From positions 139,316-203,315 of the forward strand of contig CAWAOQ010000010.1 in assembly GCA_963783785.1 (NCBI GenBank): DNA of 64,000 nucleotides. Direction: 5' to 3'. This DNA is from an uncultured beta proteobacterium (GTDB lineage Bacteria > Pseudomonadota > Gammaproteobacteria > Burkholderiales > Burkholderiaceae_C). This document shows, piece by piece, positions 33,652 through 41,066 of this stretch (its first letter is position 1; every line of letters begins with the position of its first letter). The position numbers were made by a program, and so were the translations under genes. Under the pieces are notes generated by a model, which saw only the letters and a list, made by a program, of their open reading frames with translations, did not search any database and had not been told where the DNA came from.

Positions 33652-34605
33652 ATGGCTTTCGACTTCGACGCCGCGGTGACGGCACCGTTTCGCATGCAGC
33701 CCGGCCTGCGCCGCATGGCGCCTGGCGCATCGCACCTGACGCCGATGCTGCCGGGTTCGCGCCACCAGCGCGAGAAGCTCGCGGTGCTGTGCGCCAACCC
33801 GGCGCAGGCGCTGCAGGCCGTCGCCGGGTTCGATGCGCAGCCCGCGCTGCACGCGCTGGCCGCCCATGCGGCGCACGAACACCCCGGAGACTTCGCGTGG
33901 GACGGTGAACGCGCCACCGCGCCGGCACTGGGTGTCGCGGTGCGCGGCGACCGCATCGAAGAGATCGCCGCCGGCCGCTTCGGACTGGGTGACGAGGTGG
34001 CGCGTTGCATTCGCGGGTTGCCTGAGGCGTGGCGCCTGGCCGGCCTGCTCAGCCTGGCCTTCATCGAGGACTTTGCGCTGGTCGATGGCCAGACGGGCAC
34101 GCTGCCGTGGCTGGCGGTGGCGCTGCCCTCGCACTGGGCGCCAGCGGACAAGATCGGCCGCCACTTCCGCGAGGTCCACGCCCCGGTGGCCGACAACGCG
34201 CTGCTGCTGCGCGCCGGCGACCACCTGATGCGCATGGTCAGCGGCCCCGAGCGATGGGAGCGCTTCGTCTGGAACGTCACCCGCCATCCCCGCCTCAATG
34301 CCCATCCGGCGGCGATCGATCACGCACCGTGGCCGGCCGATGCCTTCGCCGATGGCCAGGCGCTGCGGGCATGGTGGCGCACCGAGCACCAGACCTTCAT
34401 ACCGCTGCCGGACCGGGGCCAAGCGGTGTTCACGATCCATGTCGAGACCGCGCCGCTGGCCGTCGCGATCGACAGCCCCGCCAAAGCCGCTCGCCTGCAT
34501 GACGCCGTCGCCACGATGAGCGATGCGGTGCTGGCCTATCGCAGCCTCGCCAGCGTGCGCGCTGCGCTGCTGGCCTGGCTGGCGGCACGCGCGGCCGCAG
34601 CTTGA
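33652..34605 (+). CDS. DUF3445-like protein (family related to heme-dependent oxidative N-demethylases)
   Basis: Internal ATG of ORF 33613..34605: MAFDFDAAVTAPFRMQPGLRRM...EDFALVDGQTGTLPWLAVALPSHWAPADKIGRHFREVHAPVAD...RFVWNV. The family assignment is from memory of this motif pattern. Confidence 0.65.
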   Translation: MAFDFDAAVTAPFRMQPGLRRMAPGASHLTPMLPGSRHQREKLAVLCANPAQALQAVAGFDAQPALHALAAHAAHEHPGDFAWDGERATAPALGVAVRGDRIEEIAAGRFGLGDEVARCIRGLPEAWRLAGLLSLAFIEDFALVDGQTGTLPWLAVALPSHWAPADKIGRHFREVHAPVADNALLLRAGDHLMRMVSGPERWERFVWNVTRHPRLNAHPAAIDHAPWPADAFADGQALRAWWRTEHQTFIPLPDRGQAVFTIHVETAPLAVAIDSPAKAARLHDAVATMSDAVLAYRSLASVRAALLAWLAARAAAA

Positions 34606-34612
34606 AGGCCAC

Positions 34613-36530
34613 GTGAAGACCACGCCGATCGTCAGTGCCGCGGTCGACTTCGGCGACCCCGTCGCCATCCGCGCGCCGGCCTACGACGATGTCTACCACC
34701 CACGCCAGGGTGCCTTCGAGCAGGCGCGCCAGGTGTTCCTGGGCGGCAACGGGCTGCCCGAGCGCTGGCGGGGCCGCGCACGGTTCGCGATCCTCGAAAC
34801 CGGGTTCGGGCTGGGCAACAACTTCCTCGCCACCTGGGCCGCCTGGCGCGACGACCCGCTCCGCTGCGAGCGCCTGACTTTCGTCTCGATCGAAAAGCAT
34901 CCGCTGACCCCGGCCGATCTGGCGCGCGCCCATGCCGCGTCGCCGGCCCCCGCGCTGGCCCGGCAGTTGGTCGATGCGTGGCCGCCGTCAACCTGCAACC
35001 TGCACAGCCTCGAATTCGACGGCGGCCGTGTGCACCTGCTGCTGGCGTTCGGCGATGTGCAGGCCTGGGCACGCGCACTGGTGGCGCGCATCGACGCCTT
35101 CTACCTCGATGGCTTCGCACCGGCGCGCAACCCGGCGATGTGGGACCGCGGCGTGTTCTCGATGCTCGCTCGACTGGCCGCCCCCGGCGCCACTGCCGCC
35201 ACCTGGAGCGCGGCCCGCGCGGTGCGCGACGGCCTGCAAGGCGCCGGCTTCGTCGTGCATGCCGCGGTCGGCAGCGGCGGCAAGCGCGACATCACGCTGG
35301 CCCGCTATGCACCGCGCTTCGTCGCGCCGGCGCCGCCCGGCCGCGCGATGCCGGCCGAGCCGCCCAGCCACGCGCTGGTCGTCGGCGGCGGATTGGCGGG
35401 CGCGATGAGTGCCGCGGCACTCGCCCGCCAAGGCATCGCCTGCACCGTGATCGATCGCCACGCCGAGCCCGCTGCCGAGACCTCCGGCAACCCCGCCGGC
35501 CTCTTCCACGGTGCGGTGATGGGCCACGACGGCCCGCACGCGCGGCTGCACCGTGCGTCGGCGCTGCGGATGGCCTCGACCGCACGCGCTGCGCTGGCCC
35601 GCGGCGTGCCGGGCCGGGCCGACGGCCTGTTGCGCCTCGAGACGCAACTGGCGTGGCCGGCAATGCAGGCCCTGGTCGAGCGCCAGGGGCTGCCATCGGC
35701 CTACGTGCAGGCCCTTGACGCCGATGCCGCGTCGGCGCATGCCGGCACCCGCGTGCTGCATCCGGCCTGGTTCTACCCCGCTGGCGGTTGGATCGACCCG
35801 GCCGCGTTGGTGCGCGATGCGCTCGCCACGCCGGGCGTGGCCTGGCGCGGTGTGACGCCGGTGCAGCGCATCGCGCGCCACGGCAACGACTGGCAACTGT
35901 TCGATCGCGACAACCGCGCGATCGATGCCGCGCCGATGCTGGTGCTGGCCGCCGCCGCCGATGCGCTGCGCCTGGCTGCCTTGCCGCCGCAGTGGCTGAA
36001 GCGCCAGCGCGGCCAGGTCAGCTGGGCCGGCGATGGCGCCACGCCATGGCGGCCGCAGATGCCGGTCGCCAGCGGCGGCTACGTGCTGCCGATGGCCGAT
36101 GGCCGCCTGCTGTTCGGCGCCACCAGCCGTGACGACGACGACGATCCCGCCGTCCGCGTCGGTGACCACGCGGACAACCTTGCGCGTGTCGCGCAGTGGC
36201 TCGGCGACGCCTCGTTGCCCGATCCCGCCATGCTCGCCGGCCGCGTCGGCTGGCGCGCCGTCACGCCCGATCGTCTGCCGCTGGTCGGGCCGGTGCCGGC
36301 ATTCGATGCGCCGCGCCCGGCCCGCGCCGATGCACCACGCCTGCTGCCGCGCCAACCGGGACTGTGGCTGCACAGTGGCCTGGGCTCGCGCGGGCTGACC
36401 ACCGCGGCGCTCGGCGGAGAGCTGCTCGCCGCCTGGGCCAGCGGCACTGCCCTGGCCCGTCGAATCCGACCTGGTCGATGCCGTCGATCCGGCGCGCTGG
36501 CTGGTGCGCTACGGAGTTGCCCCGATGTGA
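34613..36530 (+). pseudogene. mnmC: bifunctional tRNA (mnm5s2U34) methyltransferase / FAD-dependent cmnm5s2U34 oxidoreductase MnmC, interrupted near the 3' end
   Basis: GTG 34613. N-terminal methyltransferase (FAILETGFGLGNNFL...DAFYLDGFAPARNP) and FAD domain (ALVVGGGLAGAMSAAALA). The true C-terminus PVESDLVDAVDPARWLVRYGVAPM-stop (36530) is one frame over. The junction is about 36454 (CTGGCCC). The track ORF 34523..37513 is a read-through artefact. Confidence 0.85.
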
Positions 36531-36593
36531 CGGGCGGCGCAGGCGGTCCAGACTGCCCGCTCCGGGCCTCGGCCCTCGCATACGGGAGATCGC

Positions 36594-37661
36594 ATGAAGC
36601 TGCTCACCAAGGCCCTTGCCGCTGTCATCGCCATGCTGGGGGCCACCGGCGCCACGCTGGCACAGGACAACAAGCTGCGCCTTCTCACCTGGGCCGACTA
36701 CGCACCCAAGGAGGTGGTCGATCAGTTCACCAAGGAAACCGGCATCGCGGTCGAGATCACGCTGTCGAACAACGAGGAGATGATCTCCAAGCTGCGCGCC
36801 ACCGGCGGCGCCGGCTTCGACCTGGCCCAGCCGTCGCAGGACCGCATTACCGGGCCGCAGCAGGAATTCGGCATCTACAAGCCGATGGACCTGACGAAGC
36901 TGAAGACCGAGCTGTTCATCGCGTCGATGCTCGACGCGACGAAGAAGAACACCACGCTGGCGGGCAAGGTGTACGGCTTGCCGCACATCTGGGGCACCGA
37001 TGGCCTCGTCGTCAACACCAAGCTGGCCAAGATGGCCGACTACCCCGACCTGTGCAAGCCCGAGTACAAGGGCAAGACCGCCGTGCGGCTGAAGCGCCCG
37101 ACGCTGCTGGCGTTCGCGTTCGCTGCCGGCAAGGACCCGTTCGCGCTGTACGGCGACCCCAAGGCCTACGCCGCGCTGATGGACGAGACCGGCAAGACGC
37201 TCGCCGCCTGCAAGGCCAACCTGAAGTTCTTCTGGGACAACAAGGACCAGTTGCTCAACGGCATGCGCTCGGGCGAAATCGTCGGCGCGATGATGTGGGA
37301 CACCGGCGGCTGGAAGCTCAACGCCGACAGCGCCGACATCCAGTACATCGCCCCGAAGGCCGGCGCCATGGGCTGGATCGACACCTTCGCGATTCCTGCC
37401 AAGGGCCGCAACGACGCTGCCGCGTATGCCTGGATCAACTTCAACATGCGCCCGGAAATCGCCGCCAAGGTGGCGACCTCGGCCGGCAACTTCACCGCCT
37501 CCAAAGGCGCTGACCAGTTGATGGACGCCAAGCTGAAGTCGCAATTCGCCGCCAGTTTCCCCGAAGCGGCGTTGAAGAACATCAAGTGGTACCCGGCGGT
37601 GCCCGCCGGCATCGAGGAAATCGAAGGCCGCGTGCTGGATCGCGTGAAGGCGGCGAATTGA
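36594..37661 (+). CDS. ABC transporter periplasmic substrate-binding protein (polyamine PotD/PotF-like)
   Basis: 355-aa ORF with a signal peptide (MKLLTKALAAVIAMLGATGATLA) and LRLLTWADYAPKEVVDQFTKETGI... This is the first gene of a four-gene ABC operon. Confidence 0.85.
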   Translation: MKLLTKALAAVIAMLGATGATLAQDNKLRLLTWADYAPKEVVDQFTKETGIAVEITLSNNEEMISKLRATGGAGFDLAQPSQDRITGPQQEFGIYKPMDLTKLKTELFIASMLDATKKNTTLAGKVYGLPHIWGTDGLVVNTKLAKMADYPDLCKPEYKGKTAVRLKRPTLLAFAFAAGKDPFALYGDPKAYAALMDETGKTLAACKANLKFFWDNKDQLLNGMRSGEIVGAMMWDTGGWKLNADSADIQYIAPKAGAMGWIDTFAIPAKGRNDAAAYAWINFNMRPEIAAKVATSAGNFTASKGADQLMDAKLKSQFAASFPEAALKNIKWYPAVPAGIEEIEGRVLDRVKAAN

Positions 37662-37736: not shown

Positions 37737-38831
37737 GTGACGTCAGACCTCCAGGTCGATCGCGTCGTCAAGCGCTTCGGCGACCACACGGCCGTCGAAG
37801 CGTTGTCGTTCGAGGTCGCGCGCGGCAGCTTCTTCTCGATCCTCGGCCCGTCGGGCTGCGGCAAGACCACGCTGCTGCGCATGATCGCCGGCTTCTCGGC
37901 GCCCGACGCGGGCGACATCCTGATCGGCGGCCGCTCGATGCGGGGCGTGGCGCCGAACCGGCGGCCGGTGAACATGGTGTTCCAGCACCTGGCCCTGTTC
38001 CCGATGATGTCGGTCGGCGAGAACGTGGCCTACGGCCTGACCCAGCGCGGCGTGGCCCGGGTCGAGATCAGTCGTCGCGTCGGCGAGATGCTCGAACGCG
38101 TCGGCCTGGCCGGCGCCGAGGCCAAGCGCGTCGACCAGCTGTCGGGCGGCCAACGCCAGCGCGTGGCGATCGCGCGCAGCCTGGTGCTCGAACCCACGCT
38201 GCTGTTGCTCGACGAACCGCTCGGCGCGTTGGACCTGAAGCTGCGCGAACACATGAAGATCGAACTGAAGCAGTTGCAGGCCGCTTTCGGCACGACCTTC
38301 GTCTACATCACGCACGACCAGTCGGAGGCACTGGTCCTGTCCGACCATGTGGCGGTCATGAACCGCGGCCGCTTCGAGCAGGTCGGCACGCCGCAGTCGC
38401 TGTACTACGAGCCGCAGACACCGTTCGTGGCCGGTTTCGTCGGCGCCAACAACCGCTTTGCCGGCCGCGCGACCGCCGTGCACGGCGATCGCGTCACGCT
38501 GACCAGCGACGCCGGCCTGGTGCTGCAGGCCCGTGCGCAGGGCCGTCTGGCCGCTGGCGATGCGGTCGAAGCCTTCGTGCGGCCCGAGGTTGCCTGCCTG
38601 GCACGCGGCGCCGCCGAGTTGCCCGCCGACCAGCCCCGCTACGACGCCAGCGTCGAGAGCCTGCTCTTCGACGGCGCCAGCTCGGCGGTGCTGCTGCGCG
38701 AATCGTCGAGCCGCACCGAAATCCGCGTGACCTTGCCGCAGACCGGCCGCTTCGCCGATCTGCGTGTCGGCGAGCCGGTGGCATTCGGCTTCGACCCGCA
38801 ACGCGCGGTGTGCTTCGCGGCGCCACCATGA
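37737..38831 (+). CDS. ABC transporter ATP-binding protein (PotA-like)
   Basis: 364-aa ORF with Walker A GPSGCGKTT, signature LSGGQRQRVAIARS, Walker B LLLLDEP and a C-terminal TOBE-like domain. Confidence 0.92.
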   Translation: MTSDLQVDRVVKRFGDHTAVEALSFEVARGSFFSILGPSGCGKTTLLRMIAGFSAPDAGDILIGGRSMRGVAPNRRPVNMVFQHLALFPMMSVGENVAYGLTQRGVARVEISRRVGEMLERVGLAGAEAKRVDQLSGGQRQRVAIARSLVLEPTLLLLDEPLGALDLKLREHMKIELKQLQAAFGTTFVYITHDQSEALVLSDHVAVMNRGRFEQVGTPQSLYYEPQTPFVAGFVGANNRFAGRATAVHGDRVTLTSDAGLVLQARAQGRLAAGDAVEAFVRPEVACLARGAAELPADQPRYDASVESLLFDGASSAVLLRESSSRTEIRVTLPQTGRFADLRVGEPVAFGFDPQRAVCFAAPP

Positions 38832-39712
38832 CGCCCGACACGCGCCGCGCTGCGCTGCAGGCGCGCCTGCTGCTGTTGCTGATGCTCGCACCGGCGCTGC
38901 TGTGGCTGGTGGGCCTGATCGTGTTGCCGCACGTCGAGTTGGCGCTGCTGTCGCTGCGCTCGCGCGTCGCCCCGCGGGTCTACGAGTTCAGCCTGCGCCA
39001 GTACGGCACCTTCTTCGAGGAGCCGCTGTACTGGCACACCTTCGTGCGCACCGCGGTGATGTCGGTCGTGGCCACCGCGTGCACGCTGCTGCTGGCGTTT
39101 CCGATCGCCTGGACCATCGCCAAGCTGGTGCGGGGTCGGCCGCGCTCGCTGCTGTTCATGGTCTGCATGATCCCGTTCTGGGTCAGTGAAACGGTGCGCA
39201 CGCTGGGTTGGACGATCCTGCTGCGCGAGTCGGGCGTGTTGCCGACCCTGCTGGTCGGGGCTGGGCTGGCGCCAGCGCCGCCCGAGCTGCTCTACCACGA
39301 CGCCACCATCCTCGTCGGCCTGGTCTACACCTCCCTGCTGTTCATGGTCGTGCCATTGATCGGCGCCCTCGAGTCGCTCGACGATTCGCTGATCGAGGCC
39401 GCGTACAACCTCGGCGGCAGCGGGCCGTCGATCCTTTGGCGCATCGTCATTCCGCACGCGGCGCCGGGCATCGTCGCCGGCTGCATCGTGGTGTTCATGC
39501 TCACGCTGGGCAACTACCTCACACCCACGTTGCTCGGCGGCAAGAACTCGCTGTGGTTCACCGAACAGATCTACACGCAGTTCATCACCCGCTTCAACTG
39601 GGAACAGGGTGCGGCGTTCGGTTTCCTGCTGCTGATCCTGTCGACGCTGATCGTGTGGTTGGGACTCCGGCTCAGCGGACAACGTTTCGGCGACGTGATG
39701 AGGCGCACATGA
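38828..39712 (+). CDS. ABC transporter permease (PotB-like)
   Basis: The ATG overlaps the ATPase stop (ATGA). Six TM segments and the EAA loop LDDSLIEAAYNLGGSGPSILWRIVIP. Confidence 0.9.
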   Translation: MTPDTRRAALQARLLLLLMLAPALLWLVGLIVLPHVELALLSLRSRVAPRVYEFSLRQYGTFFEEPLYWHTFVRTAVMSVVATACTLLLAFPIAWTIAKLVRGRPRSLLFMVCMIPFWVSETVRTLGWTILLRESGVLPTLLVGAGLAPAPPELLYHDATILVGLVYTSLLFMVVPLIGALESLDDSLIEAAYNLGGSGPSILWRIVIPHAAPGIVAGCIVVFMLTLGNYLTPTLLGGKNSLWFTEQIYTQFITRFNWEQGAAFGFLLLILSTLIVWLGLRLSGQRFGDVMRRT

Positions 39713-39858
39713 GCGTGCCGACGAGACCCTTCCCGGTCTGGATGCCGCTTCGCGGCCCGTTGCGGCAGTCTGCGTGTGTCCGCCTCTGTGCGTGCCTGCA
39801 TCGGCGCGAGCAAGGCGGCGGGTGGCGTTCGAGGTCGCGCACGCCACCCCTGGTTCTG

Positions 39859-40095
39859 CAACGGGGCAGCCGGGCAGCGCACGGCGCGCATGTGAGGCGC
39901 CGAGCAGCACAGGGTGCGGGGCCCGCGCGCGCAGCGCGCATCGTGATCTGACTCGGCGCGCCTGTCCGAGCGCAGCGAACGCAGTGAGCGCAGCGAGTTG
40001 CGCGACGGGGCCACGGACCCGAGCAGCGCAGGGCAGTCTGAGCGCAGCGAAGACCGCCTCAGCTGCGCGCCGTGCGCTGCCCGGCTGCCCCGTTG
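39859..40095. repeat. palindromic REP/MITE-like element inside the ABC operon
   Basis: 32-bp perfect inverted repeat: CAACGGGGCAGCCGGGCAGCGCACGGCGCGCA (39859-39890) and its exact reverse complement (40064-40095). Both arms extend imperfectly (TGTGAGGCG / CGCCTCAGC). The core holds three copies of GAGCGCAGCGA (39968, 39986, 40040) and two of CCGAGCAGCNCAGGG. Confidence 0.8.
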
Positions 40096-40211
40096 CCGCG
40101 CCACCACCAGCAACGCGGACTTCGAGTGAAACCTGCGCCCGGCAAGCTGCCGCTGCACGCCGGCGCCGTTGACGTGCCGTGCAAAGTGCAAAGCGCAGTG
40201 GAGCCATCGAC

Positions 40212-41066
40212 ATGATCGCGTCGCTCCCGCGTCCACCCTGGCTGCGCACCGCCACGGTCGTCTATGCGCTGGCGTTCTTCGCCTTCCTGTTTCTGCCGCT
40301 GGCGGTGGTGGCCCTGTTCGCATTCAACGATGCACCGTATCCGGCGCCGCCATGGCGGGGTTTCACCTGGGACTGGTTCACCGGGCACGGCGACGCCCGT
40401 CGCGTCGGCCTGTTCGCCGATGGGCCGCTGCTGGCAAGTGTCTGGACCAGCGTGGTCGTCGCCAGTTGGGTGACGCTGCTGTCGGTCGCGGTGGGCACGG
40501 CCAACGCATTCCTGCTCGAGCGTGCGACGTTCCGCGGCAAGTCCGCGCTGTCGTTGCTGATGCTGGCGCCGCTGGTGATCCCCGGGGTGATCCTCGGTAT
40601 TTCGATCCTCGCCTTCGCCAGCCGGCTGGCGCAGCTGGCCGACGACCTGTTTGCCTGGGAATTGAGCTTCCTTCGGCCCGGTCTGCCGCTGGTCGTGCTG
40701 GGCCAGTTTTCCTACATCGTCTCGATCGCCACGCTGACCATCGCAGCCCGGCTCAAGCGCTTCGACACCACGCTCGAAGAGGCGGCCTTCAATCTCGGCG
40801 CGTCGCGCATCTCGGTGTTCACCGGCATCGTCCTGCCGTACCTGCGCCCATCGCTGATCGGCGCCGCGGCGATCTCGTTCCTGATGTCGTTCGAGAACTT
40901 CAACACCACGCTGATGCTGGTGGGCTCGGATCCGCCTCTGACGGTGATGATGTACGGTCGCATGCGAGAGGGTGCGAGCCCCGTGCTGAATGCCGTCAGC
41001 CTGTTCCTGATGCTGGGCTCGGCCTTGCTGGCGCTGGCATTGATGCGCCGGCGTGACCCGGGCTGA
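40212..41066 (+). CDS. ABC transporter permease (PotC-like)
   Basis: Internal ATG of ORF 40179..41066: MIASLPRPPWLRTATVVYALAFFAFLFLPL..., with the EAA loop FDTTLEEAAFNLGASRISVFTGIVLP. Confidence 0.9.
   Translation: MIASLPRPPWLRTATVVYALAFFAFLFLPLAVVALFAFNDAPYPAPPWRGFTWDWFTGHGDARRVGLFADGPLLASVWTSVVVASWVTLLSVAVGTANAFLLERATFRGKSALSLLMLAPLVIPGVILGISILAFASRLAQLADDLFAWELSFLRPGLPLVVLGQFSYIVSIATLTIAARLKRFDTTLEEAAFNLGASRISVFTGIVLPYLRPSLIGAAAISFLMSFENFNTTLMLVGSDPPLTVMMYGRMREGASPVLNAVSLFLMLGSALLALALMRRRDPG

Follow-up and report, generated by a model that had tools for sequence, protein, structure and literature searches.

Probable member of a gene-less mosaic repeat family docked at the start codon of a potC-like permease gene in a betaproteobacterium

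Introduction

In the 64,000-nt stretch of betaproteobacterial DNA analysed here (the window), the two permease genes of an ABC-transporter operon lie 499 nt apart, from the end of the potB-like open reading frame (ORF) at 39712 to the potC-like ATG at 40212, while the genes at the operon's neighbouring junctions overlap. What occupies this spacer, and from where is the downstream cistron translated? A preliminary description of the window had already pointed to a spacer of about 500 nt in an otherwise tight operon, in agreement with the gap and the overlaps measured here. We consider it likely that the spacer is one copy of a gene-less, nonautonomous mosaic repeat that is specific to one betaproteobacterial genus and that was inserted at the potC start. 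The family has apparently not been described before; a literature search returned no paper on such repeats in Rubrivivax or the related group.

Results

The spacer is palindromic and noncoding

The features of the locus are collected in Table 1. The potB-like gene stops with TGA at 39710-39712, its exact start being uncertain, and the N terminus of PotC (MIASLPRPPW..) is identical to that of relatives with an empty site. For annotation, the potC start is placed at 40212, and the 499-nt gap corresponds to no missing gene. Elsewhere in the window, an MnmC-like ORF (34523-37513; Methyltransf_30 and DAO domains) has 996 open codons with its first domain beginning at residue 144; its real start probably lies further downstream.

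Table 1. Coordinates of the operon genes, the parts of the inserted element and the second repeat family
Feature	Position	Strand	Basis or remark
potA-like ATPase gene	37737-38831		ABC_tran + TOBE_2 domains
potB-like ABC permease gene (upstream cistron)	38810..39712	+	BPD_transp_1, E 1.3e-12; homologues at 80 related loci
Left ACATGA copy	39707..39712	+	includes the ancestral potC ATG (39709-39711), which overlaps the potB stop; empty sites in relatives
Incidental 80-codon ORF from the stranded ancestral ATG	39709..39951	+	TGA 39949-39951 in the A core
Outer-left part	39713..39747	+	weakly conserved between loci; at other loci, collinear with the orthologous part in sister species
LO core	39748..39797	+	16-bp inverted repeat CTTCGCGGCCCGTTGC (39748-39763) bounds the invertible block; module BLAST, inversion breakpoints
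Unit B left-arm remnant (outer 28 nt)	39798..39825	+	96% match to B positions 1-28
Junction module J, hairpin GGGTGGCG/CGCCACCC	39820..39849	+	kept beside unit A in all full copies
Palindromic unit A	39851..40103	+	arms 39851-39899 and 40055-40103; conserved core 39900-40054
RO1 module	40097..40153	+	overlaps the end of unit A; 68% to consensus (module BLAST)
Rmod, GCAAAGCGCAGTGGAGCCATCGACATG	40185..40214	+	nhmmer E 6.4e-5; Shine-Dalgarno GGAG 40200-40203, potC ATG 40212-40214
Right ACATGA copy	40210..40215	+	hexamer identical to 39707-39712
potC-like ABC permease gene (downstream cistron)	40212..41066	+	BPD_transp_1; tblastn from residue 1, 80 loci
Second repeat family (G000, outside the window)	C9:256333-257090; C6:229k, 245k, 259k, 261k, 595k; C19:52k, 62k; C9:186k; C11:122k; C12:154k		

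As seen, the spacer holds an inverted repeat with 49-nt arms of 90% complementarity, and a 32-bp part of the arms is perfect (39859-39890 and 40064-40095). Three direct-repeat copies of GAGCGCAGCGA (39967-78, 39985-96 and 40039-50) and two copies of CCGAGCAGCNCAGGG (39900-14 and 40019-33) are also present, and a small hairpin on the left flank pairs 39820-31 with 39838-49. All of these elements had been described in advance from the window, namely, the perfect repeat with its imperfect extension, both sets of direct repeats in the core and the local left-flank hairpin, and each was recovered. Folding of the 499-nt spacer as RNA gave -300.5 kcal/mol, compared with -265.5 +/- 6.5 kcal/mol for shuffled sequences (z = -5.35), and none of 100 shuffles was as stable.

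The longest ORF of the spacer (132 codons) has no Pfam match, and the ORF opened by the stranded ATG is unconserved, with a frame and a length that vary in every copy of the element. Furthermore, one-nucleotide indels break the reading frames among copies and subfamilies and also occur inside the core, which rules out protein coding. A real protein gene in the spacer, which the preliminary description had named as an outcome that would count against its reading, was accordingly not found by either approach. A known RNA family was likewise rejected, since neither strand of 39500-40400 has an Rfam match at E <= 1. A consensus scan of the same interval for promoters of the sigma-70 type gave no such site, and no intrinsic terminator was seen in the element by consensus scan.

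The spacer belongs to a genus-wide repeat family

The assembly that contains the window (hereafter G000) measures 3.48 Mb with 68% G+C and is 92% complete. A BLASTN search with the 271-nt segment 39840-40110 identified 10 full copies of 96 to 97% identity on eight contigs of this assembly, together with diverged copies at 76 to 80%, and similarity in searches with the whole spacer reached beyond the hairpin on both the left and the right. In total, the genome carries about 12 element loci and one remnant (C17:31860-32090). Family members were found in all 24 same-genus genomes searched, with up to ~35 matches each, whereas none of the 16 genomes that represent other families of the order had any. 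The sister genome G045 (MFD04651.bin.2.75) holds ~27 copies of the palindromic unit A. Public records with an exact 30-nt core motif carry the labels Rubrivivax, Ideonella, Piscinibacter or Burkholderiales and include the isolate Rubrivivax sp. A210.

These results bear out the earlier proposal of a genome-wide repeat family or nonautonomous mobile element inserted into the operon: the segment is multicopy in its own genome and genus-wide, and relatives have empty sites. The opposite outcome considered at that time, a single-copy sequence conserved as an orthologous spacer, is contradicted by the 10 near-identical copies and by the empty sites.

Several side observations accompany this distribution. 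Copies in G000 and in a second related genome, G005 (MFD04651.bin.1.139), often lie inside ABC-transporter operons, at potB|potC, binding protein|permease, permease|ATPase, ATPase|permease and oppB|oppC junctions. The C17 remnant, in minus-strand orientation, precedes a livM-like permease gene, and a CTGC micro-repeat marks the point at which its unit A was reduced to a single arm; right before its own stranded ATG there is an Rmod-like sequence, which suggests insertion into the start site of an earlier copy. In addition, several stretches of 5 to 17 kb on contigs C1, C2, C5, C9, C11, C12 and C17 of G000, C11:112017-123928 and C12:152956-164861 among them, are >=85% identical to other contigs, which may reflect strain redundancy in the metagenome-assembled genome (MAG) or true duplications.

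The element is inserted at the ATG of the downstream gene

The potB stop and the potC start overlap or nearly abut in most of 80 related loci (ATGA/GTGA). The junction of the Burkholderiales MAG GcL4-2, whose two proteins are 93% and 89% identical to those of the window, is empty and reads GGCGCAC-GTGA-TCGCGTCG; other relatives have GGCGCAC-ATGA-TTCC, and the general pattern is GGCGCAC(A/G)TGAT(C/T).. The filled junction of the window reads GGCGCAC-ATGA-(GCGTGCC ... CCATCGAC-ATGA)-TCGCGTCG. From the comparison of the filled and empty sequences, 503 bp were added at the potC ATG. The comparison of the potB-potC junction among relatives, which the preliminary description had put forward as a check, revealed the empty ATGA/GTGA overlap in most of them. 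Its statement that neither a transposase nor a target-site duplication was visible holds for the transposase; a duplication is visible, since ACATGA occurs twice and at least ATG is duplicated. The repeated start codon, the translation-start module at the right end, the nested build and the loss of one palindromic unit from this copy, all described below, go beyond that description.

The flanks of three other loci of G000 were joined and searched against the genus. The C16:11k site was empty in six same-genus genomes (..CTGAA-ATG-AACCGG..), the C6:395k site in 17 (..CTGAC-ATG-TCC..) and the C19:77k site in three, and the break fell at the ATG in all three cases. Loci in which the element and its neighbours are codirectional follow one order, namely, the upstream stop, ATGA within ~20 nt, the element, and Rmod with ATG or GTG followed by codon 2. 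This order was seen in 6 of 6 codirectional loci of G000 and in 5 loci of G005 for which both junctions were read. An ATG lies on both sides at every codirectional locus, extended to ACATGA in the window; the ATG is the only duplicated part common to all loci, and three bases, which can match by chance, are too short to define a fixed duplication length or to tell it from micro-homology. A long target duplication was rejected: across 11 loci, the 45 nt after the stranded ATG resembled the downstream 5' coding sequence no more than did 1,500 random 45-mers. The potB|potC insertion itself is common to three related species (the window genome, G045 and G005), which indicates that it is old at this locus.

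The right end supplies a Shine-Dalgarno sequence and a start codon

The right-end module of the element, GTGGAGCC..ACATG, consists of the Shine-Dalgarno (SD) sequence GGAG, 8 nt and an ATG. The module in its conserved form, GGTCGCGCGAAGCGCAGTGGAGCCACTGAC-ATG, runs into the second codon of the downstream gene at six codirectional loci of G000. Rmod abuts start codons at 6 loci of G000 and 6 of G005, and in G005 it is also found reverse-complemented at the left end where the left neighbour is divergent. Pfam searches confirmed the downstream genes as real; their products include ABC ATPases and permeases, a GltD-like oxidoreductase and a HAD hydrolase, whose domains begin near residue 1-25. A TGA stands 4 nt before the new ATG in most copies but is missing from the one in the window.

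A strict Rmod pattern has 10 matches in the genome, 5 of them at element loci. The Rmod profile, in turn, matches only beside elements with A or B units or beside a second repeat family (see below), and the module was therefore rejected as a general translation-start consensus of the organism. Judged from its sequence, the SD and ATG of Rmod form the putative start site now used by potC. The PotC protein would be unchanged, since the ATG of the element is in frame with potC codon 2.

The element is a nested mosaic of two palindromic units

From left to right, the element comprises the stranded ATG, an outer-left part of low conservation, a 14- to 16-bp inverted repeat, TTGCGGCCCKTTGC, and the LO core; next follow unit B with its core reversed, the junction J with its small hairpin, unit A, and RO1, which ends in GCAAWGGGCCGMAAGC; finally, ~45 variable nt lead to Rmod (SD GGAG, 8 nt, ATG). 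Its size ranges from 430 to 750 bp. In the window, RO1 holds a degenerate right partner (~40133-40147) of the 16-bp inverted repeat.

At most loci, unit B is a second, diverged hairpin placed head-to-head just left of unit A. It is missing from the window copy and from the copies at C6:268k, C13:103k and C16:11k, all of which have one common deletion junction that keeps the outer 13 to 28 nt of the left arm of B. A single deletion junction in four copies indicates that the B-less form arose once and then spread as a unit. A different derivative of 348 bp was observed at a C6:395k-type junction of another genome (G012:C15:90660-91540, L239), where both cores are deleted and the left B arm runs directly into the right A arm.

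The inner block is inverted between sister species and homogenised within genomes

Orientation of the inner block was compared in three genomes, G000, G005 and G045. G045 is the closest relative, with a potC 95% identical to that of the window, and it carries the element at the orthologous potB|potC, C16 and C6:395k junctions. At orthologous loci of these two genomes, the outer parts are collinear and have locus-specific sequence in common, such as GTGACCCTTGCATGARGCCACTTCCG left of the C16 copy in both. The whole block between the short inverted repeats is, however, inverted with clean breakpoints at all three orthologous loci. Orientation is uniform within each genome: it is reverse in 10 of 10 copies of G045 with a detectable Rmod and forward in 6 of 6 copies of both G000 and G005. 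A tally over the public loci with the core motif yielded too few with a detectable Rmod, and G045 was searched directly instead.

A units from the same genome group together regardless of locus. Their identity amounts to 96 to 98% within G000, 96 to 98% within G045 and 96% within G005, compared with 86 to 90% between orthologues of G000 and G045. Since identity within genomes exceeds that between orthologues, the A units, at least, have been homogenised or replaced in each lineage at inherited loci. No clustering by genome was seen for B units.

Such an arrangement might also be expected if the inner block were an invertible or exchangeable cassette, as in an inverton or a shufflon, on whose 14- to 16-bp repeats TTGCGGCCCKTTGC / GCAAWGGGCCGMAAGC a trans-acting recombinase operates as a genome-wide switch over many operons. 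The clean inversion at three orthologous loci with collinear outer parts and the uniform orientation in each genome agree with this explanation, which we nonetheless regard as unlikely. No recombinase was identified, mixed orientations were seen in none of the assemblies, and the uniform state of the three genomes compared would arise equally well if a single master copy in each lineage had spread or had converted the others, as the clustering of A units by genome would have it. An extended form of the proposal, to which we attach a comparably low probability, holds that some recombinase supplied in trans reads the 155-nt core or the 14- to 16-bp repeats, and both flips and homogenises start-docked hairpin cassettes throughout the genome. 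If this were true, 10 to 30 operon junctions, many of them in ABC-transporter operons, would share one orientation state that differs between sister species, amounting to a coordinated genome-wide switch of intercistronic RNA structure.

The core is conserved while the arms covary

An alignment of 73 A and B units from several species revealed a 155-nt core that is nearly invariant. It is composed of CGAGNAGCNCAGG on both sides, a GCGCGC hairpin, the motif TCGT..CTGACT and, at the apex, a 9-mer tandem (GAGCGCAGC/GAACGCAGT). The arms are wholly different between subfamilies, yet always complementary, and 33 of 57 consensus arm pairs keep pairing through changes on both sides. The plus strand of the core folds ~6 kcal/mol better than its complement in 60 of 78 units.

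These properties raise the question of whether the units are structured noncoding RNAs (genes or parts of such genes) or strand-specific single-stranded DNA sites with a functional core, spread by the host for regulation and not selfishly. The nearly invariant core with covarying arms, the better folding of the plus strand and an excess of G-U over A-C pairs (hand tally of the pair table) would fit a functional nucleic acid. However, covarying arms are expected of any palindrome, and the strand asymmetry is absent from the B units of G000 and may stem from a G-rich composition. The results of the Rfam search and of the promoter scan described above likewise argue against an RNA gene. Moreover, A and B lie in opposite orientations within one element and the block is flipped in the sister species, and consequently one transcript cannot carry all units in sense. 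We therefore think it very unlikely that the units serve as host-spread RNAs or DNA sites of this kind.

Least credible of all, with hardly any probability left to it, is an immobile, ordinary orthologous spacer or degenerate gene remnant, as the insertion common to the window genome, G045 and G005 might suggest, given ten near-identical copies at unrelated loci, empty sites in close relatives and the lack of a coding signal.

Search for a mobilising activity

With a mobile, nonautonomous repeat as the preferred reading, the genome was also inspected for a partner. The arm sequences do not occur outside element loci in G000, and a self-BLAST of the genome revealed no IS-like repeat with the same arms, an absence that is no proof in an assembly 92% complete. 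MAGs often lose IS copies. One Y1_Tnp-like ORF of the IS200/RAYT type (G000:C16:62178-62474, 232 residues, 28 bits) sits between genes judged from their translations to be dGTPase-like and gltB-like. A RAYT/REPtron arrangement was rejected, since this sole Y1_Tnp-like gene is not flanked by repeats and its 260-nt flanks are unique in the genome. Searches of G000 for DUF559 and IS110 genes gave no match, and a GIY-YIG nuclease partner was discarded because the sole match in the genome is a 651-residue open frame taken as UvrC. Overall, no transposase, RAYT, nuclease or recombinase partner was found in the genome of the window.

Three routes of insertion are conceivable: a 3-bp duplication by a DDE-type enzyme, recombination at micro-homology, and an IS200/IS605-like insertion, in which an element that itself ends in ATG would enter 3' of an ATG-containing word. 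The comparison was one of assemblies, and no movement was observed in it. We infer that the copies are still subject to some recombination or transposition provided in trans.

Discussion

Gene-less repeats with one or another of these properties are known from several bacteria. As described in PMC12548453 and PMC3184786, MIRU elements (Supply et al. 1997) are gene-less repeats inside operons that are said to insert at start codons, and the element described here was indeed found at a start codon inside an operon. Both kinds of repeat have empty and filled sites and short direct repeats at the ends; MIRUs preserve downstream expression, as the present element would. MIRUs, however, measure 40 to 100 bp and are often in tandem, whereas the present element consists of 250-nt hairpins within 430 to 750 bp. 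MIRUs also act through a small ORF whose stop overlaps the gene start (-4 coupling), in contrast to an element without a conserved ORF that carries its own SD and ATG. A coupled ORF of the MIRU type was considered and rejected here, since the ends vary from 63 nt to read-through and lie in different frames.

Neisseria REP2 and the inverted-repeat (IR) elements of Borrelia plasmids carry a ribosome binding site (RBS) and an ATG (Delihas 2011, PMC3184786). The GGAG-N8-ATG of Rmod, joined to codon 2, would similarly provide the downstream gene with an RBS and an ATG. In contrast, REP2 has a promoter, lacks terminal inverted repeats and measures ~120 to 150 bp (PMC3184786), whereas the element here, found mostly within operons, has long inverted repeats and shows no promoter-like site in the sigma-70-like scan. 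Correia elements (CREE/NEMIS) are cotranscribed with their neighbours, and their hairpin RNA is cut or bound by RNase III (PMC2649163). They also resemble the present family in having terminal inverted repeats around a conserved core and in being nonautonomous with no known transposase (PMC2649163). Nevertheless, they are ~100 to 155 bp long, duplicate TA, and have 26-bp repeats, an IHF site and terminal promoters (PMC2649163); the family here is unrelated in sequence (the arms differ), larger and nested, and it duplicates ATG or ACATGA.

Like the present element, REP/BIME sequences are mosaics whose palindromic units alternate in orientation and are accompanied by linker motifs, and they typically lie between cistrons of ABC operons (PMC2817692, PMC3116915, PMC3733652). 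REPs, on the other hand, span 20 to 40 nt, occur in hundreds of copies with GTAG/CGTC tags and flank a RAYT gene (PMC2817692, PMC3116915, PMC3733652), as opposed to units of ~250 nt at ~12 to 30 loci per genome and a sole Y1-type gene that is unflanked. Like IS-derived MITEs, the element has inverted-repeat ends, no gene, multiple copies, empty sites and an apparent short duplication (PMC10969869), but the genome yielded no parent IS with the same ends. Furthermore, the ends of MITEs are conserved (PMC10969869), while here the core is conserved and the arms drift, which is the opposite of an ordinary MITE.

The element thus shares one or two traits with each of MIRU, REP2/Borrelia IR, Correia and BIME and fails at least one defining feature of each. 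What is unusual is a large, nested, start-codon-docking mosaic with a conserved core, within-genome homogenisation and lineage-wide inversion. It illustrates how a selfish or semidomesticated repeat can occupy an overlapping stop/start harmlessly by means of a spare RBS and start codon, a habit published so far only for MIRUs and partly for REP2.

As to its consequences for the operon, the insertion would break the ATGA overlap through which potB and potC were ancestrally coupled. A ribosome that initiates at the stranded ATG would terminate within the A core after 80 codons, and potC would initiate from the SD of the element, uncoupled from potB. If the operon is transcribed through, the 49-bp stem would form a very stable RNA hairpin between the cistrons, which might act as an RNase III site or as a 3'-end stabiliser of the upstream message. 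Roles of this kind have been shown for Correia, ERIC and REP elements, protection of the upstream message being the one known from REP; for the present hairpin, such effects on the mRNA are a proposal.

The clustering of copies at start codons may partly reflect selection on survivors, only copies that restore initiation being tolerated in operons, and not targeting. In other species of the genus (G006, G009, G010, G014, G015, G017 and G042; L229-L236), the same stop/start junctions hold unrelated palindromes of 80 to 170 bp, for example CCCCCTCAAGGGGG hairpins, which likewise end near the start codon. The presence of unrelated palindromes at the same junctions indicates that these stop/start junctions are generally permissive.

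The second palindromic family of G000 is also unrelated to the element. It measures ~430 bp and comprises ~11 copies of 89 to 96% identity with long terminal inverted repeats that contain ACTTTCATTTG..CAAATGAAAGT (Table 1), and its copy at C9:256k is flanked by a stranded ATG with LO-like sequence on one side and by an Rmod with its ATG on the other.
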